Below the pieces are notes generated by a model. The model did no database searches. It was given only the letters and a program-made list of their open reading frames with translations, and was not told where the DNA came from. Positions 1 to 19,442 of a DNA stretch of 20,000 nucleotides are shown piece after piece. Location of the stretch: the IMG/VR virus record IMGVR_UViG_3300037458_001243; one strand, 5' to 3'. Numbering within the stretch: the stretch's first letter is position 1; each line of letters begins with the position of its first letter. This DNA comes from an uncultured virus (IMG/VR IMGVR_UViG_3300037458_001243) (Duplodnaviria > Heunggongvirae > Uroviricota > Caudoviricetes). The position numbers were made by a program, and so were the translations under genes.

Positions 1-641
1 GTAGACACAGGAGAAGGATCAGGAAGTAAGCCAGTGGGTGGAGTAAAATTACTTGTGTATAGGGCTTCTCCTTTTACAACTCTAAAATCCTGCATATACC
101 CATCAAAGTTGGAGCCGATAAATACACCCTCACCTGTGCTAGCTCCTATAGCAAATGATCCAATGTTCTCATCTGTACCAACCTGAGTACCATTAACGAA
201 AAATTTTAAAGTGCTTCCGGTGCGTACAAAAGCTAGGTGATACCAAGTATCAAGACTAGGCTCCCATTCATAGGAAGCACCATTACTAGACCCACCATTA
301 AAAAGCTCAAAATATACACTACCACTAACCTCTGATGTAATTTTTAATCCAGATTCGGTTACTTCATTAAGTTTAAAATATATAAAAGAGCTATTAATTG
401 ACGAACATCTACGCCATAATTCTATAGTAAAATCACCCGATCCAAACTCAAAATCAGAGCTATCATCGGTATTTATGTTAGCACCACCGTTAAAATAACC
501 ACTACTTCCATTCCACTTATACTGAGCAGTGCTGATTATTGCGTCGGAAGAATAAACAGTCCTAGCATATGTTGATGAATCGGTGAATGTGGTGCTGTTA
601 TTCTCACCATTCATGTGCAACAGCAAAACAACGTCAGTCAT
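1..641 (-). CDS. LamG/concanavalin A-like jelly-roll domain virion protein (partial, runs off the left edge)
   Basis: Absent from the ORF track because there is no stop in the window. ATG at 641 overlaps the TGA of the 698-aa gene (ATGA). Manual translation gives MTDVVLLLHMNGENNSTTFTDSS...SDFEFGSGDFTIELW...TWYHLAFVRTGSTLKFFVNGTQVG...FDGYMQDFRVVKGEALYTSNFTPPTGLLPDPSPVS, which has the typical phage LamG motifs (DFTIELW, WYHLAFVR, GYMQDFRV, YTSNFTPP). Confidence 0.9.
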   Translation of the reverse strand, partial: MTDVVLLLHMNGENNSTTFTDSSTYARTVYSSDAIISTAQYKWNGSSGYFNGGANINTDDSSDFEFGSGDFTIELWRRCSSINSSFIYFKLNEVTESGLKITSEVSGSVYFELFNGGSSNGASYEWEPSLDTWYHLAFVRTGSTLKFFVNGTQVGTDENIGSFAIGASTGEGVFIGSNFDGYMQDFRVVKGEALYTSNFTPPTGLLPDPSPVS

Positions 642-3542: not shown

Positions 3543-4514
3543 TCAGGTAATTCCCTGTGGGCGTGTTGTAGAAATCGTCATGGCGTCGTAAGGTCTCGCG
3601 CTACGCTTGGTACTTACTGCACCGGTCTGTTGCACCACCGCATAGCGGCTGCCTTGGTAGGCAAGCAACGCCGCCGTTACGGTGTCACGTTCGGTAATTG
3701 CAAACTGCTTGTCGGTCAGATTTTCAAACGGTGCTGCCTTGCACAGCCCGCGTTCCGACCAGAAGAACACCACATCGCGTTCGTCGTAGACCATGCCGTT
3801 TAACGGTACGCCATAATCCGCCACCCGAGTCAGCGGACCCTCGTAAGGGTCCAGATAAATCGCTCGGTCGGTGGCGATAACGAACGCCGAGCTAGTGTCA
3901 GCCAGCAGGGTAATTCGCCCGGCAAACAACTGGTAATCACGTTCCAGCCGGAACTCGTGAGGGTATCCAGGACGACTCAAGTACAGCACGCTCCGATCCC
4001 GTTCGTCTTCCCAAGCCGCTACGGCAATCTGATCGCGGCGGACTCCCAGCAGGTTCCCAGCCGGCGGCGGGTAACTGATAGGATCGCCCACCGGATAAGG
4101 ATCGGTCGGCGCGGCAGGACATAACGATCCCCACGCAATAGCCCGGTCGGGATAGATAGCCCAGCGGGTAGTATCGCTTATCAGGAAGATAGCGTAACCC
4201 AACTCTGCCCACTGAAATGGAGCGCCCGTTATGCCGGTATGCAGCACCGACGAGACCCCCTGATCGTCGATCTGCACCAGCCGGTCGCTGGCGTCAATAG
4301 CCAGTAAACGCCCGTCCCGCGTACCGTGAACGTCCTTTAACCCAGAGCCGGCGAAAGCAGTAAGTCCCGGTCGACGGGTCAGAAAGTTGGCGTCGTCGCA
4401 CAGCACGTTGTCAGCTTGCAGTTGCCATTCCAGCCCCAGTCGAATCGGGTCTATCCGGTTGTTTAAACCCTTGAACCCGTCTACCCTGGGAAACTGGCGA
4501 GATTCCTCAGCCAT
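3543..4514 (-). CDS. Phage virion structural protein (possible head-closure/tail beta-propeller-like protein)
   Basis: 323 aa. The N-terminal GFKGLNN...QADNV...LTRRPG pattern is typical of phage virion stabilisation/tail proteins, followed by repeated short beta-strands. GC-rich coding. Confidence 0.65.
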   Translation of the reverse strand: MAEESRQFPRVDGFKGLNNRIDPIRLGLEWQLQADNVLCDDANFLTRRPGLTAFAGSGLKDVHGTRDGRLLAIDASDRLVQIDDQGVSSVLHTGITGAPFQWAELGYAIFLISDTTRWAIYPDRAIAWGSLCPAAPTDPYPVGDPISYPPPAGNLLGVRRDQIAVAAWEDERDRSVLYLSRPGYPHEFRLERDYQLFAGRITLLADTSSAFVIATDRAIYLDPYEGPLTRVADYGVPLNGMVYDERDVVFFWSERGLCKAAPFENLTDKQFAITERDTVTAALLAYQGSRYAVVQQTGAVSTKRSARPYDAMTISTTRPQGIT

Positions 4515-5466
4515 TGGCTTTCCTCAATTCATTTAACTTTTCCTCAGTCCATCCCGGCACTGGCATAAATTTCTCAACCAGCCATGACACAGGATACTTT
4601 TGTCCCTCAAATCCAGTTTCCCAAAAGAGTTTCTTTACGTTTCGTTTTGTAGTTTGGACACCGTTTAAGGCGTAAGGAAAACTAAAATCCCCGCCCTGGG
4701 TGCGAAACATGTGGGCATACCAAGTAGCGTGATTCACCAGCACTCGCCCACCGGAGAGCCAGGTCTTAGCTGCTACTTCGATTCCCTGATTGCCCCAGTT
4801 ACCAAGGGTTTCGTCGCTTAATTTAAGCCGCCAGTACGCCTCATTCGTACACATGAAGCAGCTACCCTGCAAGCTCATGGTTTCCGTGTACCCATGTTTC
4901 TCAAGCATCGCCTTAGTTTCCGGGCGGTTTTTGTATTCCTGAAAGTATTGAAAATGCGGCTCTGTATCAAAGCAATAAGACCAACTTTGTGGATTTGGCT
5001 TTCCTTGCCATATAATCTTCCGTTTCCACCTATGAGTTTTTCCACACTGCGGACATTCTTTTGGTGTCGGTCCCTGGTACTGTTTGTGCCCACATCCGTG
5101 ACACTTCCAGTCAAATGCCCACAGATTCCTCATGATCGGAACTGAGGTTACATCATCGCCGACCCTGGCGTGAAAGTCCAGCATCTTCCTATCAAAGCCC
5201 TCGTCGAACGCACAGTGCGCGTCCACCTTCATATAGTATCGCCCGGTAGCCAGCCGGGCTGCATAGTTCGTAGCCGCTCGCATCCCAACCGTGTTTCCTG
5301 TGTGGAAAACATGAACGCGAGGATGTTGTGGTATTTCTGGCTTTGCCCACTCCCCATCAAGTACCGCGATGATCTCAGTTTCAGCACGGCTGTTTTTTAA
5401 CGCATCTTCGATAGTTTGCGCCAAGAACATTTCATTGCGGCTCGGGATTAGGATAGAAAGTTCCAT
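4507..5466 (-). CDS. GT-A fold glycosyltransferase (GT2/ppGalNAc-T-like) with inserted zinc ribbon
   Basis: Likely start is MELSILIPSRNE at 5466, because the ORF-track start at 5556 overlaps the upstream gene. Motifs: SILIPSRNE, EIIAVLDG, KVDAHC (DxH), QGSCF, GNWGNQGIEVAAKTWLSGG, AHMFR, plus CHGC...CPQC. Confidence 0.9.
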   Translation of the reverse strand: MELSILIPSRNEMFLAQTIEDALKNSRAETEIIAVLDGEWAKPEIPQHPRVHVFHTGNTVGMRAATNYAARLATGRYYMKVDAHCAFDEGFDRKMLDFHARVGDDVTSVPIMRNLWAFDWKCHGCGHKQYQGPTPKECPQCGKTHRWKRKIIWQGKPNPQSWSYCFDTEPHFQYFQEYKNRPETKAMLEKHGYTETMSLQGSCFMCTNEAYWRLKLSDETLGNWGNQGIEVAAKTWLSGGRVLVNHATWYAHMFRTQGGDFSFPYALNGVQTTKRNVKKLFWETGFEGQKYPVSWLVEKFMPVPGWTEEKLNELRKANG

Positions 5467-5500
5467 ATCGCTTCGTCTATTTATTCGGTAAATGGTATGG

Positions 5501-5863
5501 TTAAGCTTCAAGAACCCATCGGCGCTTAGCTCGCGCAATAGGCTCAATTTGCTCAATCATTGCTGTGAAGCATCCACTTTGATAAAAATCTACCTTGACG
5601 CTCTGGTCATCTAACCGTTCGCAGAAAACGTGATGCCCGTTCGGATAGATGTCGTGTGGGCCATGCCCTGTACCACCTCCATCGTTGGTTGTTTTATAAA
5701 CCACATACTGCCCAGCAAAGTAAGCTAATTTTCCGCCAATTTTAATTTTTCCACGGGTGATTTTGAATGGCCCTTTGTGGTACGAGTAAATTAAATGCTC
5801 TGGCACATCTGCATAGACCTCATGGCCATCTTTCAATTCGATAATATCGCCTTCTTTAAGCAT
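5501..5863 (-). CDS. 120-aa hypothetical protein (His/Gly-rich GGGTGHGPHDIYPNGHH motif)
   Basis: ATG lies 2 nt after the methyltransferase stop. Globular composition. Fills the gap within the operon. Confidence 0.75.
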   Translation of the reverse strand: MLKEGDIIELKDGHEVYADVPEHLIYSYHKGPFKITRGKIKIGGKLAYFAGQYVVYKTTNDGGGTGHGPHDIYPNGHHVFCERLDDQSVKVDFYQSGCFTAMIEQIEPIARAKRRWVLEA

Positions 5864-5865
5864 CG

Positions 5866-6390
5866 TTATTTACCAAAATACCAAGACGGTTGACGATCAT
5901 CCCGAACTGGATTTTCTCTGTCCCATTCGGTTATGTTAAGAACATAGCCGTGTTCTTTTACGTACTCATCTACTGCCTTAATTACTCCCAATTTCCCACT
6001 CGCAGATTCGTAGTAGTCATGCCCCGAGACCATCCCGCCGGGCCTTACTTTTGGAACCCACGCCAGCAGATCATCCCTTACTGCCTCATACGAGTGGTCG
6101 GCGTCGATGAAGACGAAATCCAAAGATCCGTCTTTAACAGATTCCGCTACGTCAACGCTCTTACCACGGATAATCGTTACGTTGGGATAGCGAGAAAGCG
6201 TTTCCACGGCCAGCGGATAAGCACGTTCCCGCCAGGTCTTAATCGCCCACGAGTCGACACAGAGTAGGTTAAGATTCGGTATAGTGTCCAGTAACAGTCT
6301 GGAGTAGTACCCCACATAAACGCCGATCTCAGCGCCTTTTGTATAGCCCCGGCGGGCGAATTCTTTTGCGAGTTCTGTTCTGTTTTTCAT
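5866..6390 (-). CDS. Class I SAM-dependent methyltransferase (Methyltransf_24-like, candidate sugar O-methyltransferase)
   Basis: Motifs GAEIGVYVGYYS, LLCVDSW, LDFVFIDADHSYEAVRDD and VRPGGMVSGHDY. Likely start is MKNRTELAK at 6390 (or 6396). Confidence 0.9.
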   Translation of the reverse strand: MKNRTELAKEFARRGYTKGAEIGVYVGYYSRLLLDTIPNLNLLCVDSWAIKTWRERAYPLAVETLSRYPNVTIIRGKSVDVAESVKDGSLDFVFIDADHSYEAVRDDLLAWVPKVRPGGMVSGHDYYESASGKLGVIKAVDEYVKEHGYVLNITEWDRENPVRDDRQPSWYFGK

Positions 6391-6429
6391 GAGCATTTTG
6401 ATTGCTAAATGCAACACCCCTGATAAGGT

Positions 6430-6458
6430 ATTATAACTAAAATTAATCGGTTTTGCGA
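6430..6458 (-). promoter_or_regulatory. Candidate internal sigma70-type promoter
   Basis: Perfect TATAAT (minus strand 6435-6430) in an AT-rich ~95-bp intergenic gap. The hexamer 17 bp upstream (TCGCAA) is a poor -35 match. Confidence 0.25.
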
Positions 6459-6487
6459 CACCTATACAAGAATACTACTGGCAACAT

Positions 6488-7198
6488 CTAAGACTCAAAA
6501 CAAAAAACTTCTGTACATCGTAACTCTTGCTGAACGAGCCGCCACGGTCTATCCCACCCAGGTAAGTTCTCAATCACGTCTTCTTTCCAATTCTCTGGCT
6601 TACGAACAAAGTCATCATAATTCATCTTTGGCGCAGTCATCGACCGAGTATGCCTTATGTCGATATTTGGGTACGTAGACCTCCATTCTTCCTTTAAAGC
6701 AAACTCCCCTTCTTTATTAAACTTCCCAGGTTCATATCCCATCGACCTAGCCCAAACCGGATTACCAAAAGTAGGGATACTGGCGTAATCCCGTTCTTCG
6801 ATAATCCTTAGCCGGTTCCGATAGAATTCCCGCGCCAGTTTCCGATTCACGCACAGCCCGGACACTGAAGCGTGGTGGTCGTATGTGATTACTTTGCGGG
6901 TATAATAATCCCAGCGCCACACGTTTACGTTGTAGTAAAAAGTATCGTCTGTAAGCGGCACGAACTCAAAGTGCGACGGGTGATATAAAATGTCATGCTC
7001 GCAGAAAAACACGTAAGTTTCTTTGGCACGTTCCAAGCAGTCATAAATCTGCTTGAACATACTCAGCGCACCAATCTTATCAACCACTGTATCATTCACA
7101 GTGATTGGTAAACCTGACTTTTGTAACTGCCGCCAACAACCCTCCTTGATCTCTGGTTTTAATCGGTTTGAAGTGTAGTAGATGATGCCTACGGACAT
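6488..7198 (-). CDS. Divergent GT-A fold glycosyltransferase (EHD metal-binding motif)
   Basis: Likely start is MSVGIIYYTSN at 7198, with GGAGAGG upstream. YVFFCEHDILY is a DxD-equivalent motif, followed by SVSGL, GYEPG and NIDIRH. Embedded among other glycosyltransferases. Confidence 0.7.
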   Translation of the reverse strand: MSVGIIYYTSNRLKPEIKEGCWRQLQKSGLPITVNDTVVDKIGALSMFKQIYDCLERAKETYVFFCEHDILYHPSHFEFVPLTDDTFYYNVNVWRWDYYTRKVITYDHHASVSGLCVNRKLAREFYRNRLRIIEERDYASIPTFGNPVWARSMGYEPGKFNKEGEFALKEEWRSTYPNIDIRHTRSMTAPKMNYDDFVRKPENWKEDVIENLPGWDRPWRLVQQELRCTEVFCFES

Positions 7199-7983
7199 GA
7201 CAACCCAAACCTCTCCATCAGCCACGACAGGTCATGCTTACGCCCTTCCCAGCGATTGTTCAGCCAGTAATCCTTACTGTAGGTATTGCCACGCTTTACG
7301 TCCACCCCTCGCGGCGACACCACCCGCCCGAAGCTGCGATGTTTATGAGCATACCACGCGGCTTTATTAACCATTACCTTGCCGCCGCCGAGCCAGGTTT
7401 TCAATGAAATCTCAGTGCCTTCTTGTGTGAAGGGTCCGTAATTCACCTCATCCAACGGACTAATCCGTTTCCAGTGATCCCTGTGCAGCAAGTAAAACGA
7501 TCCCTGAATCACCATCGTCTCATCAAGCAAAACGTCGGCTCGTTCCTTGCGCCGCGAGCGCCATGTCGCACCACCAATCTTATCAGGGTTGTCGATTACT
7601 AACCGCTCGTAGTCAATAGGCGTAGGATCGCCCTCGTAAATGCACCACTTCACTGGATCAAGTTGATAGCGACGTGGGACTACAACCCAATCCTTTTGTG
7701 CCGATTCCAGTAATACCTCATCCCAACCATCCGACAATATACAGTGATCGTCGATCTTTACGAGCCATTCACCTGAAGCCAGCGACATACCCTTATTGAC
7801 ATTACCACGTAAACCAAGCCGGGTTTCATTCTTAACCACTCGAACGCCGGGAATGTCCACGTCTACAGCATCAGCCATAACAATAACTTCTGGCTTATTT
7901 CTGGTTTTTTCTAAAACTTCCTGCACCGTATTAACCAGTGCAGGATCGTTTACCGTAGGAATAATTACGCTGAGCCAAACCAT
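7189..7983 (-). CDS. GT-A fold glycosyltransferase (GT2/ppGalNAc-T-like)
   Basis: Motifs LSVIIPTVND, VRVVKNETRLGL, KIDDHC (DxH), GWDEVLL, QGSFY, EISLKTWLGGG and AHKHR. Confidence 0.9.
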   Translation of the reverse strand: MVWLSVIIPTVNDPALVNTVQEVLEKTRNKPEVIVMADAVDVDIPGVRVVKNETRLGLRGNVNKGMSLASGEWLVKIDDHCILSDGWDEVLLESAQKDWVVVPRRYQLDPVKWCIYEGDPTPIDYERLVIDNPDKIGGATWRSRRKERADVLLDETMVIQGSFYLLHRDHWKRISPLDEVNYGPFTQEGTEISLKTWLGGGKVMVNKAAWYAHKHRSFGRVVSPRGVDVKRGNTYSKDYWLNNRWEGRKHDLSWLMERFGLSCP

Positions 7984-8756
7984 TTTGGACGAATGACCTC
8001 TTCATAGTAAGGACGCCAAACTTTCAGTGCATAAGCATAACCGTCATCACACCGGGCGGGGTTCTCAGGAGTGCCTTGATTATGGGTACGCCGAAATGAG
8101 ACATGCTTGTGTGCGAACCAGGTCCGTTTATTCACGAGCAGTTTACCGCCTGCTTGCCAAGTTTTAAAGACCATTTCATGAGAATCCTGAATCAGCGGAC
8201 CATAATTCTCATGATCCAGTTCGCCAATTACCTGATCCCACCATGCCTTCCGCATCATCCAGCAAGACCCTTGCATGGACATGGTTTCATCCACTTCCAA
8301 ATGCGCCCGATCTCGCTCCCGCTGCCGCCAGTGCCGCCCCTCAAACTTCCTGTCGCCGCTGATCTCCAGCCGCTCGTAATCCCAGTGAGGTAGCGCCATA
8401 CATTCCCATTTTTCAGGGTCCAGGAAATACCGTCTCGGCGTAACGATAGCGTTTTCTTCACAGGACGATACTAACTCTACATCGTAGCCCTTTGCATACA
8501 TGCAATGCTCATCGGAGCGCATTAAATACTCACCCTTAGCCGCAGCCATACCAGCATTAATAGCGCGGCGCATCCCACGATTTTGCCCCAAGTGTAGATA
8601 CTTAACCCGCTTGTCCGTGTGTACCTTGTCCGCCCAATACCCATCCAGTACCGGAATAACCTCTATATCTCCCGCCGCGCCGTCCAGCAACGACTGGATA
8701 GTTTTATACAAATACGGGTCTTTATAGGATGGTATTACGATAGATACTAAAGCCAT
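7965..8756 (-). CDS. GT-A fold glycosyltransferase (GT2/ppGalNAc-T-like)
   Basis: Motifs VSIVIPSYKD, EVIPVLDG, NRGMRRAINAG, RSDEHC (DxH), QGSCW, EMVFKTWQAGG and AHKH. TAATG-coupled to the upstream adaptor gene. Confidence 0.9.
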   Translation of the reverse strand: MALVSIVIPSYKDPYLYKTIQSLLDGAAGDIEVIPVLDGYWADKVHTDKRVKYLHLGQNRGMRRAINAGMAAAKGEYLMRSDEHCMYAKGYDVELVSSCEENAIVTPRRYFLDPEKWECMALPHWDYERLEISGDRKFEGRHWRQRERDRAHLEVDETMSMQGSCWMMRKAWWDQVIGELDHENYGPLIQDSHEMVFKTWQAGGKLLVNKRTWFAHKHVSFRRTHNQGTPENPARCDDGYAYALKVWRPYYEEVIRPKWFGSA

Positions 8757-9118
8757 TATAGCTCCGCCTTAACCGGAATAACTGCGGTGTGGTCTATGTT
8801 GGTACGGCCTAAGTCTGGTGTGCCAGCTACAGTGCTGGTAATACGATGGGTGATAGTAACCTTAGTAGCACCCGCCGTTACTGAGAACTCTACGCCATAA
8901 CAATTCGTATAAGTATCTCCAAGGCTATCAACCACACTCCCTACGTCAGTACTATCAGTCACAATCGTTCCACCGACGATAGAAGCGTCATGCGTGGTGA
9001 TAGTCTCGTTCGCCCTCAACCAATCTTGGTAAGAAAAGTAAACCCAATCCGTAGAATCAGGGTCTATCGGATCATTTGTGCAAGTAACTATCCTTCGATT
9101 GTTGTGTACGTATGCCAT
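8756..9118 (-). CDS. Putative phage fiber-tail adaptor protein
   Basis: 120 aa with a GAGG RBS. The DPDSTDWVYFSYQDWLRANETI pattern resembles the 'DP....Y.FDW..WL..GETI' small adaptor proteins that follow fibre genes in tailed phages. Confidence 0.6.
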   Translation of the reverse strand: MAYVHNNRRIVTCTNDPIDPDSTDWVYFSYQDWLRANETITTHDASIVGGTIVTDSTDVGSVVDSLGDTYTNCYGVEFSVTAGATKVTITHRITSTVAGTPDLGRTNIDHTAVIPVKAEL

Positions 9119-9132
9119 GCTAAAACCTCATA

Positions 9133-12100: not shown

Positions 12101-13497
12101 ACTACAACATCCTCAACATACTGTGTAGGAATTATTGATGGGGATTCAGACGGACTCTCTGACGGAGATTCAGACGGGCTCTCTGACGGAGACGCCGATG
12201 AACTTAATGAGGGACTCAGCGATGGTGATAGTGACGGGCTAAGCGAAGGACTAAATGACGGAGAGCTAGACGGAGACGCCGATGAACTTAATGAGGGACT
12301 CAGCGATGGTGATAGTGACGGGCTAAGCGAAGGACTAAATGACGGAGAGCTAGACGGAGAGATAGATGGCGATAGCGAATATGAAGCGCCACCCGCCGCC
12401 AAGTAAACTTTATTAAGATATAATAAATGAGTATCAGTACCATTGCTAGTATGAATAATTCTTATTCTACAATTTCCTGATGAAAAATAATCCGCACCTG
12501 CCAATAAATAAAATACGTAGTTTTGTTCTACCGCCGATGATGGGAAGTCATTGGTATTACTTGTAACGTCTACCCAAGAAGTGCTTGTATAGTTCCACTG
12601 CTGTAATTTAACAACGTGAGCAGGATTACCTTCATATTTACCTAAAATATAAAGATCGACATTTGTGCTTGGAATATCATCATACTGTCCGAACTCGAAA
12701 TCGTAGGTAAATCCACCACCCGTCGTAGGATTGGTATAAACCCCAGTAACTTCTGTTAATATTAAACTACTCTCAGCGATATTATCCCGATAAACATTCT
12801 TTAGTGCGCCAGAACTTATAGCACCCTTAGTTAGCGTCAAACTCGAAGGATTCCACCAATCGGTCGCTGGCGGCGATACTGATGGCGAAAACGAAGGACT
12901 GGTGGTCGGTGATACCGATGGAGATAAAGAAGGACTAACAGACGGACTTAAAGAAGGACTAACAGACGGACTTAAAGAAGGACTAACAGACGGGGATGAA
13001 GAAGGGCTGATTGATGGACTAAGCGACGCCGACGGATAAGTATAAGTAATCTCTAATCTGACTGAGTAAAGTCTAATCTGCGGGTTAGCATCGGTAGAAT
13101 AAATACCAATAGCCGCTATGCTATTAGCGCTTGCTGCCGACCAGACGGTTTCGTCAACCGGATTGGCAGTCCAGGTAGTGGTATGTAATTCAGTTACGCC
13201 GTTTGTTAAGTTCGATGCACCAGCATTGTAATAACTGGACCCGATCTTAATACGCCCGCCACTATTACAAGTTGAGCCTGACTTATATCGGTAATGATGT
13301 ACTTTAACTGTTATGTTGGTAGCGCCGGTAGGAACCGTAGGAGCGCTGATATTCCAGGTGGCATTGCCAGCGGTCGTACCATGCGTCAGGTAGTTACTAC
13401 TGGAATCAGGATAGTCATTAATCGTGCTGACAGTTGTGGCAGACCACGTACCTGAGCTGGTATCAAAACTGGTAGGGTCGCGGGTTAAAGTAGCCAT
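9133..13497 (-). CDS. 1454-aa mucin-like virion/fibre protein: two beta-rich N-terminal domains, (S-P-S-x)n tracts and a short C-terminal anchor-like segment
   Basis: Continuous ORF, TAATG-coupled to the upstream gene. Unique domains at about aa 1-155 and 211-370. SPSx repeats at about aa 156-210 and 371-1403. C-terminal RIINV..NIIINI..ERLITI..ERLIAI..DRVTLI repeats. No signal peptide. Confidence 0.85.
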   Translation of the reverse strand: MATLTRDPTSFDTSSGTWSATTVSTINDYPDSSSNYLTHGTTAGNATWNISAPTVPTGATNITVKVHHYRYKSGSTCNSGGRIKIGSSYYNAGASNLTNGVTELHTTTWTANPVDETVWSAASANSIAAIGIYSTDANPQIRLYSVRLEITYTYPSASLSPSISPSSSPSVSPSLSPSVSPSLSPSVSPSLSPSVSPTTSPSFSPSVSPPATDWWNPSSLTLTKGAISSGALKNVYRDNIAESSLILTEVTGVYTNPTTGGGFTYDFEFGQYDDIPSTNVDLYILGKYEGNPAHVVKLQQWNYTSTSWVDVTSNTNDFPSSAVEQNYVFYLLAGADYFSSGNCRIRIIHTSNGTDTHLLYLNKVYLAAGGASYSLSPSISPSSSPSFSPSLSPSLSPSLSPSLSSSASPSSSPSFSPSLSPSLSPSLSPSLSSSASPSESPSESPSESPSESPSIIPTQYVEDVVVRTAVISASLSPSESPSASFSPSLSASLSPSESPSESPSLSSSISPSESPSESPSASLSPSLSPSLSPSVSPSISPSESPSESPSASLSPSLSPSESPSISPSLSPSLSPSESPSASLSPSLSLSASPSESPSFSPSASPSISPSLSASLSPSESPSASLSPSESPSISPSKSPSLSPSLSASESPSASLSPSISPSFSPSLSPSLSSSLSPSESPSASLSPSLSPSESPSLSPSLSPSLSPSLSPSESPSASLSPSLSPSLSASLSPSLSPSFSPSESPSASLSPSLSPSKSPSISPSLSPSLSPSESPSASLSPSLSPSFSPSLSPSESPSESPSLSPSVSPSESPSASLSPSLSPSISPSESPSLSPSESPSASLSPSASPSLSPSISPSASPSLGSSYSPSLSPSESPSASPSESPSASLSPSLSASLSPSLSPSLSASLSPSESPSASLSPSLSPSKSPSESPSLSPSASPSASPSLSPSESPSASLSPSLSPSLSASLSPSESPSLSPSLSASLSPSESPSASLSPSASPSESPSLSPSLSLSLSPSLSPSLSPSQSPSASFSPSLSPSKSPSASPSLSASISPSKSPSISPSFSPSLSPSESPSASLSPSLSPSLSPSESPSASLSPSLSPSLSSSLSPSESPSISPSLSSSLSPSESPSASLSPSLSPSESPSESPSESPSASISPSISPSASPSIGSSYSPSFSPSESPSLSPSESPSASLSPSQSPSASPSLSPSESSSASLSLSPSLSPSESPSESPSESPSISPSASLSPSLSASLSPSESPSASLSPSKSPSESPSFSPSESPSESPSESPSASLSPSFSPSESPSESPSLSSSESPSASPSESPSASPSESPSTSPSASLSPSFSPSESPSESPSESPSASLSPSFSPSLSASFSPSVSPSVSPSASLSPSVSPSVSPSASPSTPPEVPTGRIINVINKNNIIINICDNERLITINGSERLIAINDNDRVTLIAA
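9290..12386 (-). repeat. Degenerate 12-bp-period coding repeat, roughly 250 S-P-S-x / S-A-S-L tetrapeptides
   Basis: Translation shows SPSL, SPSE, SPSA, SPSI, SPSF, SPSK and SPSV units. The DNA has 12-bp periodicity with shuffled synonymous codons. Confidence 0.95.
12185..12360. repeat. Perfect 84-bp tandem duplication within the SPSx tract
   Basis: The unit beginning gacggagacgccgatgaacttaatgagg starts at 12185 and again at 12269. A partial third start (gacggaga) is at 12353. Confidence 0.9.
12868..13032 (-). repeat. First SPSx tract (interdomain linker), including a 24-bp tandem repeat of about 2.9 copies
   Basis: taaagaaggactaacagacggact at 12925 and 12949, partial at 12973. Encodes (SPSVSPSL)n. 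Confidence 0.9.
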
Positions 13498-14546
13498 TAC
13501 AAGGTACTCGTTACCTTAATTTGTAAATAACCAAGACTGTCAAATGCCACTGTATAGTCTTGCCACTCTGCTGCTTCGCAGGCTACTAATGTTGCCCCAT
13601 GCCGATAATCCAGATTGATCGTATCGCCTGCTGAATAGACGTTATATTCAATCTTTACCCTAACTGCATCCGTATAAACAACCTCGGAGATCATATACTC
13701 CGTTGCTTCCAAAGCAAGGCGTTCGGTATCGGCGGTGCCAGGATTTTCTATAGCACCCGTTCCCGTCCAGTTATTCTCAAAATTACGTATAACAGACTCC
13801 GATACACCCGTATCGTGTCCCCATACTATAGGGAACCCAGCGGGAGATGAAGATATTGATGGGCTTAATGATGGAGATAATGATGGACTTAATGATGGAG
13901 ATAATGATGGAGATAATGACGGACTAACGGATGGACTTAAAGATGGACTTAAAGATGCTGATGGAGATGCTGATGGACTTAAAGATGCACTTGCTTCATA
14001 TTCAAACGCACCAATATCCCACTGTGCGCCGCTGCCACCACGATCTGTACCAACAATATCAACTTGAAACGGGTAAGTAGCATCGTTGTATAGATTAGTA
14101 CCATAACCCAAAGCTACTGTGTCACTTGAAGCAAGAGCAAAGTTGTCGGCACCTTCATCGACAAAAGCAACACTACCAGTTCTTGAATTTGCGCCAGGAG
14201 CGTTAGACGTAATATCAGAGCAATTATAATCTGATCCAGTCCCCCAGCGCCACCCTGCAACAAACCCTTCGTTACAATCCTGTACTATACAATTTTTAAC
14301 TACTGTCTGATTTGCGTCAGACACGCCGTCATCAGGCAAATAAAATCCATAATAGCAGTTATGTGCAGTATTGTTGAACCACCGTTGACCTATAAAGCCA
14401 TTTTGTTTGCTAATTCCTAGGCCCCGGCTGGCTGTACCTACGTCGTAGACCACACAATTCACACAAACACTATTATCACCACCTATCTGACACCCTTCTG
14501 GATAGTCTCCAGCAGATCGGGTGCCTCTAAGAATACAAGATGACAA
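13497..14546 (-). CDS. C-terminal part of a beta-helix-like virion protein, with SPSx linker and C-terminal beta-sandwich (probably joined to 14483-14977 by a -1 frameshift)
   Basis: TTG start with no evident RBS. Beta-helix-type repeats (CVNCVVYD, FNNTAHNCYYG, VKNCIVQDC) and the DIVGTDR...WDIGAFEY motif, then an SPSx tract and a unique ~110-aa domain. Confidence 0.75.
   Translation of the reverse strand: MSSCILRGTRSAGDYPEGCQIGGDNSVCVNCVVYDVGTASRGLGISKQNGFIGQRWFNNTAHNCYYGFYLPDDGVSDANQTVVKNCIVQDCNEGFVAGWRWGTGSDYNCSDITSNAPGANSRTGSVAFVDEGADNFALASSDTVALGYGTNLYNDATYPFQVDIVGTDRGGSGAQWDIGAFEYEASASLSPSASPSASLSPSLSPSVSPSLSPSLSPSLSPSLSPSLSPSISSSPAGFPIVWGHDTGVSESVIRNFENNWTGTGAIENPGTADTERLALEATEYMISEVVYTDAVRVKIEYNVYSAGDTINLDYRHGATLVACEAAEWQDYTVAFDSLGYLQIKVTSTL
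13843..13995 (-). repeat. SPSx linker tract in the beta-helix protein
   Basis: Encodes ASASLSPSASPSASLSPSLSPSVSPSL...ISSSP. AT-rich 12-bp units such as gatggagataat and gatggacttaaa. Confidence 0.9.
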
Positions 14547-14977
14547 TAAAAACCAGCAGTACCAGAACCAGCAAGGCGTATTAACCCTGGATGGTAGTCA
14601 CCTGTTGAAGTTGTGGTATTATAAATCTGTAATCCGATTACCTGTGTGTAAGACTCAGTACTTTCCAGTAGGAAACCATCGGCTCTCGACAACGCAAGTC
14701 TATATTTATTGCCAGTCTGATAAGTGCCATCGTGCCGGTAAGATTCAGCCGGATCAGTCCAAATCTTGACGTATTGTGTGGCAGATGTTGTCCATCCATC
14801 AACTAAAACCGCTGTACTATCTGCTGTCCCTCCTGTACAACGGCATTTTGCTACTGCGATTTCATTTCGTACACCAGTTAGATCACCCTGTTCTCCAGCT
14901 TCCCAATCGTACAGCGAATCATAATCGTAACCAGACCCCATATCGGGGTCTACAACATGAACGACCTCAGTAGCCAT
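14483..14977 (-). CDS. N-terminal part of the beta-helix-like virion protein
   Basis: ATG lies 1 nt after the upstream stop. Motifs DYDSLYDWEA, DGWTTSATQYVKIW, RHDG and YTQVIGLQI are typical of the N-terminal cap of phage beta-helix virion proteins. Overlaps the downstream ORF by 64 nt in a different frame. Confidence 0.75.
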   Translation of the reverse strand: MATEVVHVVDPDMGSGYDYDSLYDWEAGEQGDLTGVRNEIAVAKCRCTGGTADSTAVLVDGWTTSATQYVKIWTDPAESYRHDGTYQTGNKYRLALSRADGFLLESTESYTQVIGLQIYNTTTSTGDYHPGLIRLAGSGTAGFYCHLVFLEAPDLLETIQKGVR

Positions 14978-14978
14978 T

Positions 14979-15794
14979 TTAGACTACCTGATGATCTATT
15001 ACGGCAGCAAGTAGTTGTGCCTTTGTATAAGTCACCACACCACCTGCCGCGATAATGGCATCCACCGCAGCGGATGAAATTGAATAGCGATGTCGTTTGT
15101 ACACCTTCTCCAATGCATGTTTCACGTCAGAACGAAATTTGGCTAGTACCACTGACCTCTCCAAATTAAACCGCACAGTAGTTGCTGTTGTTTCTATAAC
15201 AGTGCCGCCTTGCTGAACTACACGTTGCGACACAGCAGCTACCTTAGTAGATTCATTAACTATAGTTACTGTAATATCTGCTACACCAGTTGTCGCATTG
15301 TAGTTATTGAGGACAAATGCAGCTTTTGCGGATATATTGTCAACATCCCAAAAGCCTTCACTCTGTGCGGCTTGCCACAACCGAAAATCAAATTGTACAG
15401 AATTAGTAGTTGCGGAGATATTGTTACATCCCCACTTTACTAACCACGCCTGAACTTTATTAAGCGTTATTTGATTCTGATTAGAAGCACCTGCATTTTT
15501 CTCAAAAACCCGTACTGTATACCGCCCTTGAGCGGCATTACTACCTAAGATTTCATAATCAAAATCATCGCGCCACGCCCGACGATAATCGGCAGTTGCC
15601 GCTTCCTCAAAAGAAATCCCTGGGCATTTCACTACGACAAACTTAACCGGATATTGTGACTGTGCCCAACCTGGTGTGTCACTCCAACCATCAGGTTTGT
15701 AATTAACAAAATCCCCTTTCTTATGCACCCCACGCCGGTCTTTATCGGAGTCTGTATGAGCATAGTCACTACGCTTGAAAATAAATTCGCTCAT
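14979..15794 (-). CDS. 271-aa hypothetical protein
   Basis: Operonic spacing on both sides. Possible weak internal duplication (DYEILGSNAAQGRYTVRV...SVQFDF vs AFVLNNYNATTGVADITV...TVRFNL). Confidence 0.75.
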   Translation of the reverse strand: MSEFIFKRSDYAHTDSDKDRRGVHKKGDFVNYKPDGWSDTPGWAQSQYPVKFVVVKCPGISFEEAATADYRRAWRDDFDYEILGSNAAQGRYTVRVFEKNAGASNQNQITLNKVQAWLVKWGCNNISATTNSVQFDFRLWQAAQSEGFWDVDNISAKAAFVLNNYNATTGVADITVTIVNESTKVAAVSQRVVQQGGTVIETTATTVRFNLERSVVLAKFRSDVKHALEKVYKRHRYSISSAAVDAIIAAGGVVTYTKAQLLAAVIDHQVV

Positions 15795-15797
15795 AGT

Positions 15798-16067
15798 TCA
15801 CTTTCTCACGTGCACATACTTTTTACAATCCAGCAAAGGAAGTCCCGATTGCTGGAATCCAATGCTGTGCGTGGCAAGTAAGTTTTGGAACTCGCACAAT
15901 TCAACCCCATCATAAGCAGTAAACCGTGGCCCGGCGTTTACAAACGCCTCCAGCTTTTCCTGCTGCGCTATGCTGATTCGATGGTCGTTGTACCACCAGC
16001 CGAAACCTAATGCGCCAATAGCAGCAAAGATAATAATAAAAATGATACGGTTTACCATTATCGCCAA
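15798..16067 (-). CDS. Small N-terminally membrane-anchored protein (possible lysis accessory)
   Basis: IIFIIIFAAIGALGFGWWY transmembrane segment followed by a soluble domain with two Cys. Confidence 0.65.
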   Translation of the reverse strand: MAIMVNRIIFIIIFAAIGALGFGWWYNDHRISIAQQEKLEAFVNAGPRFTAYDGVELCEFQNLLATHSIGFQQSGLPLLDCKKYVHVRK

Positions 16068-16450
16068 CCAAAATAGCTCTTTATAACAATCACAATCGAG
16101 GTTCCAATAATACCCGCCATCGTTGCCAACATTGCGTAAAAACCTTTTTTAGCTGCATCCCGAAACAACCCACCAAAAGTAAGATCATCCCGAAAACCTT
16201 GAAGTTGCTTTGGGTCATTTACATCAACACCAAGAAGCCCAAAAGCCTGCTTCACAGCCATATCAACTGCCTGATGAGCAACTTTCATCTCGCTAGCTTC
16301 TAACCGCCTCTCGATCCTGTGATCTAACCCAATTAGCTCACTTTCTACCCGCTGCGCCAAATCATCCAACCGCGAATGAAGTAAATCCAATTCCCGGCGA
16401 TGTGACCGTTCAAGCTCATGACGTAGCGAGTTAGGGTCGTCATTTGGCAT
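16058..16450 (-). CDS. Coiled-coil protein with C-terminal transmembrane helix (holin-like/membrane protein)
   Basis: N-terminal heptad-like charged helix, LLGVDVNDP motif, and hydrophobic GFYAMLATMAGIIGTSIVIVI C-terminus. Confidence 0.7.
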   Translation of the reverse strand: MPNDDPNSLRHELERSHRRELDLLHSRLDDLAQRVESELIGLDHRIERRLEASEMKVAHQAVDMAVKQAFGLLGVDVNDPKQLQGFRDDLTFGGLFRDAAKKGFYAMLATMAGIIGTSIVIVIKSYFGWR

Positions 16451-16649
16451 TTAAAACCTTCAAACACATTTTGCACTTACTCTCGTCATCTCTAGCACGG
16501 CGCAATAACGACAGCTCGCGCAGCTTGAACCGGCACAGTGAAACAGCCATGCCATTAGGTCGGTAGTCAAAAATATGAGCCACCGTACTATTTGGTGTCA
16601 TCGACCATTCTTGAGCGAGAAATGGATTCTCGCTACTGTTTTTCATCAT
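16440..16649 (-). CDS. Small hypothetical protein, possible zinc-binding (H...C...CxxC)
   Basis: AHIF...SLC...KCKMC. Overlaps both neighbours. Confidence 0.55.
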   Translation of the reverse strand: MMKNSSENPFLAQEWSMTPNSTVAHIFDYRPNGMAVSLCRFKLRELSLLRRARDDESKCKMCLKVLNAK

Positions 16650-16869
16650 CTTCGGCTAATCTAGCCAATGACAACTCTATTAGCGCCTTAACGATAAACC
16701 GTTTCGCACCATTTAAAGCCGGGAATATCTGTTCGATAACAGCATTGCGTTTAGCTTTCCCTTCCATTTCAGAGCTTGCCATGGTGGCAACTAGATTCTG
16801 AACTTCCCTAATTTGATATGCTTTAACAAACACCCGGAAAGCCAAAAAAATCCAATCATAACGATTCAT
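16633..16869 (-). CDS. 78-aa hypothetical protein
   Basis: GAGG upstream of the ATG, overlaps with neighbours, amphipathic helical sequence. Confidence 0.6.
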   Translation of the reverse strand: MNRYDWIFLAFRVFVKAYQIREVQNLVATMASSEMEGKAKRNAVIEQIFPALNGAKRFIVKALIELSLARLAEDDEKQ

Positions 16870-17089
16870 TGTTTACCTCGCGGTAGCGTATCTCACGCCG
16901 CAACCCCAAGTCGCGCATCACCCGCCGACTTAAAGGCTCTTTTCCCTCAATCATGGCCACCAATCTACTCTCCGGTATATGCAATCGTTCCGCCATCGCC
17001 GGCAGGGTTTCCTGACGAGCCTTCATAGCAAGCATGGCACCTGCATCTACCGCTGGAATAGGGTAATCAGTTAGATCGCCCACCGGCAT
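16856..17089 (-). CDS. Small helix-turn-helix (Cro/XRE-like) protein
   Basis: TLPAMAERLHIPESRLVAMIEGKEPLSRRVMRDLGL fits an XRE-type HTH pattern. Confidence 0.6.
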   Translation of the reverse strand: MPVGDLTDYPIPAVDAGAMLAMKARQETLPAMAERLHIPESRLVAMIEGKEPLSRRVMRDLGLRREIRYREVNNESL

Positions 17090-17101
17090 ACCACGCCTAT
17101 A

Positions 17102-17452
17102 TCATTTATCCCCAAATCCGTGCCCGTCGATTTTGGGGTCAAACTCGGTCGGCAGGGATTCGCGCAGCCGGTCAGGAGTACGATTAACAGGATCAGACGG
17201 CTTAGTAACTGTGGCATGATTCAAAATCTCGTTTACGATCTCTTTTCCATCTGGTGCCCGCCGCTTCTTGTCCCGCACCAGAATCAGGATCAGCGAGGCC
17301 ACCGCAATCCCGACTTCCTGCCACGCCTGCCATTCCAGAGCATCCGAAGAGCCAAATCCAAAATATCCGGTTAGCAGCCCGATAGCTGCCCACGTCCAGC
17401 GGTCGTCGAACCAATCCGCGACTTTTTCCAGGAACGCCTTAAACTTTTCCAT
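17102..17452 (-). CDS. Putative holin (two transmembrane segments, charged C-terminal tail)
   Basis: WTWAAIGLLTGYFGFG and VGIAVASLILILV followed by RDKKRR. Lies near the endolysin. Confidence 0.6.
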   Translation of the reverse strand: MEKFKAFLEKVADWFDDRWTWAAIGLLTGYFGFGSSDALEWQAWQEVGIAVASLILILVRDKKRRAPDGKEIVNEILNHATVTKPSDPVNRTPDRLRESLPTEFDPKIDGHGFGDK

Positions 17453-17600
17453 GACTGGTGTCGGTTAGTGTCTTGTACGCACCCCAAATCGGCAGTGCTA
17501 CCAGCAGGCCAATTACCGCTACTGACAGCACGATCCCAGCAGCAGGCGCGATCAGCAGCAGGATCAGGCAGATTATCAGAACTTTCAGGGATTCAGGCAT
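17439..17600 (-). CDS. 53-aa very hydrophobic membrane protein (not in ORF track)
   Basis: GGAG RBS 5-6 nt before ATG 17600. Translation MPESLKVLIICLILLLIAPAAGIVLSVAVIGLLVALPIWGAYKTLTDTSHGKV*. Fills the gap and overlaps both neighbours. Confidence 0.75.
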   Translation of the reverse strand: MPESLKVLIICLILLLIAPAAGIVLSVAVIGLLVALPIWGAYKTLTDTSHGKV

Positions 17601-17791
17601 TTTGTCTCCAGTTTCGCCAGTCTCCGGTATACTTCATCCATATCCTCGTGATAAGCGGCTTCCATCAATCGGAATTTGGCCTCTATCGATGGAGCCTTAC
17701 AAAACTCACAATTCCCTACATGCTTGTGTGGCTTAACGATGGTACGTAAAACACCCGTCAATTCCCGTATAGCCTCAACTAATGTTTTCAC
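17585..17791 (-). CDS. 68-aa hypothetical protein (CxxC, C-terminal coiled coil)
   Basis: GTG at 17791 overlaps the endolysin TGA (GTGA), which is preferred over the ORF-track start at 17866. HKHVGNCEFC motif. Confidence 0.6.
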   Translation of the reverse strand: MKTLVEAIRELTGVLRTIVKPHKHVGNCEFCKAPSIEAKFRLMEAAYHEDMDEVYRRLAKLETKCLNP

Positions 17792-18228
17792 TGCAATCCA
17801 ATCTTGTAAAACAAATGACTGCCTAACCGCTTTCCAATCCGTTTCTCTGCCCACGCCGGAGGCCATTTTCTTACCCCCTCTGGTCGCAAAATCGTGTGGT
17901 AATGGTCTGCACCTTCCGTCGGATCAGGAATTTCATCATCAAGCACAGCATAAGCTAATTGATACAGCTCCCCAAGCTGCTCTCTCGTTCTCGTCCTTAC
18001 CCGCGATGCTTGCTTATCCCACCAGCATGTAAACTGGTCACGATCCAAACATACCGCTTCTATCGTATCGTCTGGGATCCCATCCCGCTGGCGACTCCAC
18101 CAGCCCGGATTCTCAGCACGATTCCGAATCACCCAAGCTACTGCAATTTGCCCATCACGAGGTTCACCTCGACATTCACCCCATAGCGTCCTTGCCATGG
18201 CTAACACATCTTCAGGCCGGTACTTCAC
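17788..18228 (-). CDS. Cell wall hydrolase, SleB/Hydrolase_2 family (putative endolysin)
   Basis: MARTLWGECRGE (catalytic Glu), GQIAVAWVIRNR, QFTCW, DPTEGADHYH, PAWA and GSHLFY. Confidence 0.93.
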   Translation of the reverse strand: MKYRPEDVLAMARTLWGECRGEPRDGQIAVAWVIRNRAENPGWWSRQRDGIPDDTIEAVCLDRDQFTCWWDKQASRVRTRTREQLGELYQLAYAVLDDEIPDPTEGADHYHTILRPEGVRKWPPAWAEKRIGKRLGSHLFYKIGLQ

Positions 18229-18412
18229 TCAAACGCTCCAAAGTTTCAGCTTGCTTCAATTCGTAGGCCAGGCATAACCCAGGGAACTCTGGATGATCCT
18301 GCGTACAGTAATACACATCTGGATCATCACCTACGAAATTCGCACATTTACTACAGGCAAGTTGCGAAGGCTCTATTCGTTTAGCAATAAAGCCTTTCAC
18401 AGTTCCCCTCAC
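18212..18412 (-). CDS. 66-aa Cys-rich putative zinc-binding protein
   Basis: CSKC...YYC...H...LC. GTGA overlap with the upstream gene stop. Confidence 0.6.
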   Translation of the reverse strand: MRGTVKGFIAKRIEPSQLACSKCANFVGDDPDVYYCTQDHPEFPGLCLAYELKQAETLERLSEVPA

Positions 18413-18801
18413 CCACCTTCAGACGGTGAAGCCGACGGTGAAATCGATGGGCTTGCTGACCGGCTCGCTGACGGGCTAGTCGAAGGGCTCGCCGAAGGAC
18501 TAATTGAAGGACTTAAAGACGGACTCGCCGATGGACTCAACGATGGACTCCTGGATGGGCTTGCCGAAGGACTTGCAGATGGACTCAACGAAGCCGATGG
18601 CGAAGCTGATGGAGAAGCCGACGGAGAGATTGAAGCCGATGGCGAAGCTGATGGAGAAGCCGACGGGGAGATCGATGGCGAAGCTGATGGAGAAGCCGAT
18701 GGTGAAAATGATGGTGAAGCCGATGGCGAGGCCGACGGCGAAGTCGACGGAAACGCATAGGCTGGCAGGTCAAAGATACGAACTAAGCCGGATTCGCTCA
18801 T
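18409..18801 (-). CDS. 130-aa mucin-like protein: 17-aa unique leader plus almost pure (S-P-S-x)n
   Basis: ATGA overlap with the upstream gene and GTGA overlap with the downstream gene. MSESGLVRIFDLPAYAF followed by about 27 SPSA/SPSI/SPSL units, ending SEGG. Confidence 0.8.
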   Translation of the reverse strand: MSESGLVRIFDLPAYAFPSTSPSASPSASPSFSPSASPSASPSISPSASPSASPSASISPSASPSASPSASLSPSASPSASPSRSPSLSPSASPSLSPSISPSASPSTSPSASRSASPSISPSASPSEGG

Positions 18802-19436: not shown

Positions 19437-19442
19437 CGGTGT

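Follow-up and report, generated by a model that had tools for sequence, protein, structure and literature searches.

A Putative Glycosyltransferase Cassette Associated with Serine–Proline Tract Proteins in an Uncultured Tailed Phage

The 20,000-nucleotide (nt) stretch of DNA analyzed here, which we call the window, belongs to the virus record IMGVR_UViG_3300037458_001243 (Caudoviricetes) and, within the genome of an uncultured tailed phage, covers part of the late structural operon. Encoded in it are three proteins with long tracts of the repeat Ser-Pro-Ser-x (SPSx), hereafter carriers, and a cassette of enzymes that includes three predicted glycosyltransferases. An earlier note, made from the sequence alone, had proposed that the phage uses these enzymes to glycosylate its own virion proteins in the manner of mucins. 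Our comparison across viral loci shows that cassette and tracts co-vary tightly, and we think it likely that the cassette would O-glycosylate and methylate serines on virion fibers in the host cytoplasm.

Tract Proteins and Enzyme Cassette of the Window

Tracts were delimited by a fixed rule (24-amino acid (aa) windows with at least 11 Ser plus Thr, at least 3 Pro and at least 17 Ser, Thr and Pro together), under which the three carriers contain 1,263 tract residues, 626 of them Ser, with serine at every second position and proline at every fourth. Open reading frames (ORFs) and the rule agree on the three minus-strand SPSx proteins and the places given for them in the earlier note, which had overlooked the first short tract of the 1454-aa giant carrier. 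This giant carrier has two non-repeat N-terminal domains (aa 1–149 and 220–369) and 545 Ser within its tracts, the longest of which is the candidate main acceptor. Its N-terminal domain resembles solely unnamed viral clusters, and its C-terminus bears a short motif, PPxVPTGR(I/L)I...DNERLI, that is common to the carriers of two other loci (L002 and L003). The small carrier consists of 14 N-terminal residues followed by a 115-aa SPSx tract (aa 15–129; 18415–18759) with 55 Ser and 26 Pro.

Table 1. Tract proteins, cassette genes and other features; coordinates are those of the window unless a locus name precedes them.
Feature	Coordinates	Strand	Basis or remark
Giant carrier, 1454 aa	9133..13497	-	ORF/translation; about three quarters SPSx
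Giant carrier tract 1, aa 150-219	12841-13050	-	fixed rule
Giant carrier tract 2, aa 370-459	12121-12390	-	fixed rule
Giant carrier tract 3 (longest), aa 476-1409, 934 aa, 470 Ser, 199 Pro	9271-12072	-	fixed rule
Second carrier, 349 aa as called	13497..14546	-	SPSx linker aa 186-239 (13830-13991), C-terminal domain
164-aa ORF	14483..14977	-	overlaps second carrier at 14483-14546
Small carrier, 130 aa	18409-18801	-	after structural-type pair, before lysis block
120-aa protein, no known family	8756..9118	-	directly after giant carrier
Glycosyltransferase 1, 263 aa, DxH = D-E-H	7965..8756	-	Pfam Glycos_transf_2, 68.2 bits
Glycosyltransferase 2, 264 aa, DxH = D-D-H	7189..7983	-	Pfam Glycos_transf_2, 61.2 bits
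Conserved cassette protein, 245 aa as listed, likely start residue 10	6488..7225	-	no known family
S-adenosylmethionine (SAM)-dependent methyltransferase, 183 aa	5866..6417	-	Pfam Methyltransf_24, 72.2 bits
phrog_7702 protein, 120 aa	5501..5863	-	PHROG
Glycosyltransferase 3, 319 aa, DxH = D-A-H	4507..5466 (listed ORF 4507-5556)	-	Pfam Glycos_transf_2, 52.2 bits
Loop-insertion protein with tract	L095:13077-14183, L098:12096-13187, L099:7867-8955		
Tract-less relative of loop-insertion protein	L101:12401-12883		
Two structural-type proteins	19443-20000, 18798-19436	-	first in transcription direction
Lysis block: Hydrolase_2 endolysin and two small membrane proteins	17788-18228 (endolysin)	-	Pfam, hydropathy
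271-aa protein, then 164-aa protein	14483-14977 (164-aa protein)	-	between lysis block and 349-aa carrier
349-aa carrier, 1454-aa carrier, 120-aa protein, enzyme cassette		-	gene order onward from the 164-aa protein
Structural and baseplate-like genes		-	downstream of cassette, last in run; Pfam, PHROG
LamG-domain fiber or baseplate protein, clipped by window edge	3..641	-	Pfam Laminin_G_3; PHROG baseplate/structural families

Residues 366–1390 of the giant carrier contain 211 SPS triplets, where 1000 shuffles give 52.9 ± 6.1 (maximum 76), and the spacing between successive prolines over the whole protein is exactly four in 174 of 243 intervals; the order of the tracts thus goes beyond mere composition. 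All six serine codons are used, and Tandem Repeats Finder reports only short imperfect local arrays plus one exact 84-bp duplication in the tract DNA, so that the repeat is kept at the level of the protein. Contigs from three other runs match the tract DNA at 99% or more (30 of 30 bins in run X2, 28 in X3 and 22 in X4), so that the tract is real DNA and not an assembly artefact. Two of these runs hold in-frame length variants, one in which 189 nt at 10016–10204 are replaced by 3 (X3) and one with one copy fewer of the exact 84-nt unit at 12185–12268 (X4), indicating that tract length varies in nature while the frame stays intact. Three short contigs of RNA library X6 are identical to carrier genes, which is not a demonstration of transcription. 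On the plus strand, the long Asp/Gly/Glu-rich ORFs at 10028–12406, 9161–9982, 13735–14067 and 18293–18760 are antisense shadows of the Ser-Pro repeat and not genes.

The N-terminal part of the second carrier is β-helix-like, with weak matches to parallel β-helix and choice-of-anchor-Q models. The 164-aa ORF overlaps this carrier in a frame shifted by one base, at a T5 run of the minus strand (14548–14552), and one contig of run X4 (depth 4.85) has an extra base there that places both ORFs in one frame of ~510 aa. The two ORFs are probably one gene, with the 164-aa ORF as its N-terminal part, and their separation at the T run may have arisen in the assembly or may reflect slippage or a true frameshift.

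Searches with the 120-aa protein encoded directly after the giant carrier returned no family match, and the adaptor role once proposed for it is unproven. Homologues with 77% and 67% identity follow tract proteins in L002 and L003 that are unrelated to the giant carrier and have the same C-terminal motif; a complex prediction for the 120-aa protein with the C-terminal 70 residues of the giant carrier scored 0.27. Given that the motif recurs on two carriers with no other relationship, and that a homologue of the 120-aa protein comes next in both cases, our guess is that the giant carrier is anchored by its C-terminus and displays its N-terminal domains.

The cassette and carrier proteins contain no hydrophobic segment of the membrane or signal-peptide type (Kyte–Doolittle 19-aa maximum at most 1.23), in line with the absence of signal peptides reported in the earlier note. 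Signal-peptide-like hydrophobic N-termini are found elsewhere, on a 912-aa tract carrier (L002:4191–6926), unlike the window carriers, and on a 1424-aa tract-less neighbor of carriers (L003:4119–8390). These could speak for tract proteins that are modified but are not part of the virion, for example released or exported glycoproteins acting as decoys or matrix-binding proteins. We regard that explanation as very improbable for the window, whose carriers lack such a segment, are encoded between lysis genes and structural or baseplate-like genes and contain LamG or β-helix-like domains typical of fibers; in other backbones, moreover, the tracts directly follow the head genes.

Turning to the enzymes, three of the four glycosyltransferases counted in the earlier note exceed the curated cut-off of Pfam Glycos_transf_2 (PF00535; 23.3 bits), whereas the fourth (6488–7225) has no Pfam, NCBIfam or PDB match; the methyltransferase is confirmed by Pfam as Methyltransf_24. 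The description of the enzymes as similar to polypeptide N-acetylgalactosaminyltransferases (ppGalNAc-Ts) holds for all three by sequence and for enzyme 3 also by predicted fold. In single-sequence searches, ppGalNAc-Ts make up three of five PDB matches of enzyme 1, including the best (4e-4; the other two are putative bacterial glycosyltransferases), 14 of 14 matches of enzyme 2 (best 3.2e-7) and eight of eight matches of enzyme 3, and a profile of enzyme 3 built from 26 relatives returned ppGalNAc-Ts in 14 of 15 PDB matches. The AlphaFold (AF2) model of enzyme 3 has a predicted local distance difference test score (pLDDT) of 81.5, and all Foldseek matches listed for it in the PDB (ranks 1–50) are ppGalNAc-Ts, with an E-value of 1.5e-14 at rank 1, template-modeling (TM) scores of 0.53–0.66 and identities of 13–19%; the alignments span only the catalytic part of targets of 430–540 residues.

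GT27 enzymes are defined by a DxH metal motif plus a downstream His. The DxH motifs of the window enzymes align to the same motifs of ppGalNAc-Ts, and no family member departs from the D and H of this motif or from a later His (70 of 70, the enzyme 1 family, and 38 of 38). In enzyme 3, a WGNQGIE..TWLSGG stretch aligns with the corresponding WGxxxxE...W.CGG-like motif of the animal enzymes, and a His-x-F-R lies downstream. By these comparisons the nearest solved relatives of the three transferases, which share the GT-A fold, are the animal ppGalNAc-transferases (GT27), and enzyme 3 is the most ppGalNAc-T-like of the three. We describe the three as GT27-like, as remote kin of GT27 that would function in a similar way, and do not file them as members. 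They differ from GT27 in being viral and, by prediction, cytoplasmic, and in having no stem, no C-terminal ricin-type lectin domain (the enzymes are 263–319 aa long, and Pfam finds none) and no type II membrane anchor (Kyte–Doolittle 19-aa maximum 0.57–1.23 in cassette proteins). A further difference lies within the GT-A fold of enzyme 3, where residues 122–141 form an invariant, zinc-ribbon-like CxxC...CxxC insertion with weak rubredoxin and zinc-ribbon matches. Homologues of enzyme 3 span 87–92% of the long ORF in 119 of the 120 matches listed, from which we place its start at Met31 of the listed ORF. Its relatives in metagenome proteins number 5,878 at E ≤ 1e-5; tblastn found no match to it in 50,697 GenBank phage records.

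The conserved cassette protein at 6488–7225 belongs to a family with 73 copies in 60 loci and an E-x-D that is invariant in 70 of 70. A PDB profile search at E ≤ 1 returned nothing for it, hhalign against the family of the third enzyme (GT349) gave a probability of 0.4, and its atlas neighbors are viral clusters, one of them auto-named glycosyltransferase; we treat it as a putative divergent glycosyltransferase. The methyltransferase, present in 51 copies in related loci, is presumed to O-methylate the glycan. The phrog_7702 protein at 5501–5863 is probably an unrelated insertion outside the system. It has no counterpart in G002, the closest relative of the window phage (no alignment across window positions 5468–5866), and its DNA is 79.8% identical over 89 bases to Escherichia coli phage vB_EcoM_KWBSE43-6 and a Klebsiella phage.

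Related cassettes contain further genes, and of 167 accessory proteins (174 before de-duplication) we examined 141, in 57 of which Pfam recognizes a family. These comprise 19 methyltransferases, 10 radical SAM-SPASM enzymes, five NAD-dependent epimerases or dehydratases, two each of DegT aminotransferases, GNAT acetyltransferases, UDP-glucose dehydrogenases and Asn-synthase-like enzymes, and single examples of a GT1, a TOD1/MUCI70-like transferase, a sulfotransferase, a carbamoyltransferase and a nitroreductase, together with a cytidylyltransferase-kinase-isomerase trio and seven homing endonucleases. Pfam identified no flippase, polymerase, lipid-carrier transferase, prolyl hydroxylase or DNA-base-modifying enzyme among the 141. 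Taken together, the accessory proteins equip a soluble pathway for the construction of a tailored, methylated glycan. The radical SAM-SPASM enzymes lie inside the cassettes of L005, L008, L010, L014, L026, L028, L032, L038, L043 and L050, and the window has none; homing endonuclease genes of the HNH, GIY-YIG and NUMOD3 types are found between cassette genes in L006, L016, L030, L038 and L045.

Co-occurrence of Cassettes and Tracts across Viral Loci

Enzyme 1 retrieves 56 viral loci at 50–94% identity, in which the conserved enzyme set consists of enzyme 1, copies of the 6488–7225 protein and the methyltransferase, and enzyme 3 in last place. The flanking genes are not conserved: only one of the 56 loci shares the structural genes of the window, and the backbones differ, with a Mu-like portal in L018 and a P22-like portal in L013. 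Strict [ST]P[ST]x runs are present in 42 of the 56, all on the strand of the enzymes. Under a looser rule, tracts occur in 55 of 66 cassette loci (a set that takes in the window, six contigs of metagenome-assembled genomes (MAGs) retrieved by enzyme 3 and one contig in three views) versus two of 20 fetched loci without a cassette (190 kb), and of the 89 tract ORFs 87 are encoded on the same strand as the enzymes. One of the two tract-positive loci without a cassette had been chosen for its tract, and the tract of the other is 27 aa long and lies on the opposite strand. Eleven cassette loci lack a tract, all of them incomplete views: nine contigs end within or soon after the cassette, the view of L008 ends ~3 kb past enzyme 1 while the contig continues, and L059 is the G002 contig seen short of its tract gene. 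By their non-tract sequence the 72 carriers fall into 51 clusters, so that what cassette neighbors have in common is the tract and not a protein family. MAG labels on contigs with the third enzyme are Gammaproteobacteria, Patescibacteria and Levybacteria, which may stem from mis-binned phage contigs.

The comparison of SPSx genes with DxH glycosyltransferases that the earlier note had suggested thus turns out positive in the forward direction, from enzyme to tract, and it does so again within two lineages. In the lineage of the window, the genes that flank the cassette are adjacent in L060, L067, L068 and L071, and L072 has no enzyme upstream of p323, one of these flanking genes; the visible parts of these five contain no tract (0/5), whereas both members with a cassette, the window and G002, have tracts (2/2). 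G002 (67.9 kb, rated complete, ~80% DNA identity to the window) has a single real tract protein, an 811-aa LamG-like fiber protein with two tracts encoded four genes from the cassette; the tract rule also flags a 30-aa stretch in an ORF opposite in strand to the surrounding genes. The C-terminal part of the 811-aa carrier is homologous to a tract-less protein of the cassette-less L060. Relative to G002, the window has gained a ~7-kb block (8756–15794) with two more carriers as well as the 130-aa carrier, in whose place G002 has two unrelated genes. Outside the region in common with the window, a single ORF of G002 (the contig of L001) spans 7814–19924 on the minus strand and would encode 4037 aa.

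The second lineage, with a P22-like portal, was retrieved by means of its capsid gene and a conserved 160-aa protein, the alignment of which contributed one more countable contig; five truncated contigs were left out. A tract lies between capsid and cassette in nine of nine contigs with a cassette, and none of the five contigs without one has tracts (Fisher's exact test worked by hand, 1 in 2002, or 1 in 1287 if a pair with identical capsids is counted once). On the capsid tree the cassette label takes five changes, of which at least three are forced by well-supported branches, and the pairing has therefore outlasted several independent gains or losses. Three phages of this lineage have a ~205-aa SxSP tract inserted in one hairpin loop of the 160-aa protein, which lacks a tract in the other members and is a predicted β-sandwich without a Foldseek match in the PDB at E ≤ 0.001 (the only entries were weak jelly-roll and tail-tip ones). 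An attempt at a third lineage ended with the capsid gene of L018, which retrieved solely itself.

These observations bear on whether cassette and tract genes merely travel together as a mobile block, or share a host lineage or habitat, with no tie of enzyme to substrate. The absence from G002 of the block in which two carriers stand beside the cassette would suit such hitch-hiking, as would the homing endonucleases at seven of 141 accessory positions and the binning of several enzyme-bearing contigs to the same candidate phyla. A mobile block would nevertheless have to account for carriers of 51 unrelated families, for the lineage whose tract was inserted in a resident core gene rather than brought in as a neighboring gene, for the cassette retained in G002 with its carrier four genes off, and for at least three independent gains or losses in which the pairing was kept each time. 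We consider this explanation improbable.

Linkers rich in Pro, Ser and Thr are common between protein domains in general, and the tracts could be flexible, unmodified fiber spacers, with the enzymes aimed instead at host envelope glycans (for serotype conversion or superinfection exclusion), free polysaccharide or phage DNA. In keeping with this, DNA glucosylation and serotype conversion are the phage glycosyltransferase roles described as best known in PMC12619734, and the link between enzymes and tracts rests on sequence and not on chemistry. A spacer role alone would not predict the loss of tracts wherever the cassette is missing in two lineages (0/5 and 0/5), and three further points argue in the same direction: the cassette lies within the structural operon and adjoins tract genes, it contains no membrane proteins, flippase, polymerase, lipid-carrier transferase, hydroxymethylase or other DNA-modification enzyme, and polypeptides are the substrates of the solved proteins closest to the enzymes. 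Unmodified spacers are thus unlikely in our judgment.

Proposed Pathway and Known Systems

Based on these results, we hypothesize that cassette and tracts form a glycosylation pathway of the phage itself. In the cytoplasm of the infected cell, the three Mn-type DxH GT-A transferases would start and extend O-linked sugars on tract serines, drawing on host nucleotide sugars. Enzyme 3, as the most ppGalNAc-T-like of the three, would be the best candidate for the initiator; the conserved protein at 6488–7225 may contribute a further step, and the methyltransferase would cap the glycan. Such a pathway would give the virion a mucin-like stalk or coat that is extended, stiff and resistant to proteases, with the β-rich N-terminal domains of the giant carrier positioned far out and its C-terminal motif fixed near the neighboring 120-aa protein. 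ppGalNAc-Ts favor proline near the acceptor (positions −1, +1 and +3), a preference with which every second Ser of SPSx is compatible, and the adjacency of the window enzymes to Ser/Pro-rich tandem-repeat proteins as likely acceptors is a further likeness to GT27. The mucin reading of the earlier note is supported in part, by the tracts, the enzyme families and fold, the solubility of the enzymes, their adjacency to tract genes and the co-variation of cassette and tracts; it is by inference that we assign the enzyme–substrate relation, the glycan and its donor sugar, the acceptor residue, the location on the virion and the physical effect.

Several points weigh against this pathway. The virion location of the carriers is deduced from their place in a structural operon, from their LamG and β-helix domains and, in other backbones, from tracts directly after head genes, and the transfer of sugar by any family member is a prediction from sequence. 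The likeness to GT27 is remote at the identities and TM scores given above, and it comes without a lectin domain or membrane anchor. Nor is the upstream position universal: 31 of 53 loci have a tract ORF among the four genes upstream of the cassette, and 22 of 30 have one among the four genes downstream. When the search started from the 130-aa tract protein, at least 613 stretches were matched and two loci were confirmed, one with a cassette enzyme and one without. The latter, L058, is a 14%-complete fragment whose tracts measure 911 and 308 aa, and the 23.6 kb covered contain no cassette. Finally, the cassette-less background amounts, without L058, to 19 loci and 177 kb that are short and mostly relatives of the window phage (searches for background loci gave 11 with the endolysin, nearly all close relatives, seven short ones with the LamG protein and five with the flanking structural protein, sets suited to comparison within the lineage and not to random sampling), and cassette-negative contigs are fragments of genomes in which a cassette could sit elsewhere.

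A more far-reaching proposal is that these viral, possibly also bacterial, kin of the animal enzymes perform true mucin-type initiation (N-acetylhexosamine (HexNAc)-O-Ser) on hundreds of serines per chain within the bacterial cytoplasm to form glycan-brush stalks, and that the kit, widespread among uncultured phages, represents a prokaryotic sister or source of eukaryotic GT27 glycosylation. We consider this less likely than not. An extended chain measures ~0.25–0.3 nm per residue, and on that basis the 934 residues of the longest tract would make stalks of about a quarter of a micrometer, with binding domains kept well away from the particle.

Among known systems, the glycosylation of mycobacteriophage virions (Che8, Corndog and Myrna; Freeman et al. 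2023, via PMC12619734 and PMC12363180) comes closest, in which phage-encoded enzymes glycosylate the C-terminal parts of capsid and tail-tube subunits. The likeness would be that phage-encoded glycosyltransferases modify the structural proteins of the phage itself, in mycobacteriophages on terminal extensions. The absence of precedent suggested in the earlier note is therefore to be qualified: the concept is known from PMC12619734 and PMC12363180, with enzymes in which no homology to those of the window is detectable. Che8 gp108 is a fusion of GT2 and Methyltransf_24, the same two Pfam families as in the window cassette, with DxD where the window enzymes have DxH; gp109 is a weak GT2, and gp110 a GT25. 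No homology of the window transferases to Che8 proteins is detectable by hhalign of the family (probability 0.07 for gp110 and 0.16 for gp109), and the 11 weak matches of enzyme 1 include no mycobacteriophage; the window methyltransferase shares its Pfam family with gp108 at a weak pairwise match (E 0.004). The arrangement differs as well, the Che8 enzymes being encoded at the right end of the genome and the window enzymes within the structural operon beside their presumed acceptors, which, unlike those of mycobacteriophages, are periodic SPSx tracts of up to 934 aa.

The second point of comparison is with bacterial serine-rich repeat adhesins, whose systems rely on GT4-type GtfA/GtfB and accessory Sec export (SecA2/SecY2). 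Pfam finds no Glycos_transf_1/GT4-type domain and no Sec component among 27 window proteins, and the tract proteins of the window, unlike these adhesins, belong to the structural module of a phage. What the two share is very long Ser-rich repeats that in the Gram-positive adhesins are O-glycosylated in the cytoplasm by dedicated glycosyltransferases encoded alongside (PMC6973325).

Self-glycosylation of phage particles has so far been documented only for a few mycobacteriophages, and in our search of the full-text literature we met no account of phages that pair GT27-like enzymes with Ser-Pro tracts. Here a different, GT27-like set of enzymes stands beside far larger, periodic tracts as presumed acceptors, and this arrangement recurs in many uncultured phages whose backbones are unrelated. 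If the proposed pathway is correct, phages would make mucin-like glycoproteins in the bacterial cytoplasm, which would add to the known constituents of virions and offer an explanation for long "low-complexity" virome genes. It would also supply soluble enzymes and a short encodable SPSx tag for densely O-glycosylated proteins in bacteria, and would raise the question of the origin of the animal mucin-type enzymes. The 130-aa protein and five enzymes constitute a compact, directly testable system.

Other Features of the Window

The minus strand carries all substantial genes of the window. Neighboring genes abut or overlap by a few bases, and neither promoter-like sites (17 vs 20.8) nor terminator-like sites (14 vs 14.9) exceed shuffles in a scan of the window, which fits a single late operon.

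The LamG protein turns Pro/Ser-rich right where the window edge cuts it, and it is possible that it is a fourth carrier; by gene order its counterpart in G002 is the 811-aa protein, in which the LamG-like domain lies between the two tracts. Positions 1–2000, which hold the genes of a 698-aa protein and the LamG protein, have a G+C content of 0.35–0.38, against 0.44–0.54 elsewhere, and the 698-aa protein is only 32% identical to the version in the closest relative; this combination suggests a swapped distal-fiber module.

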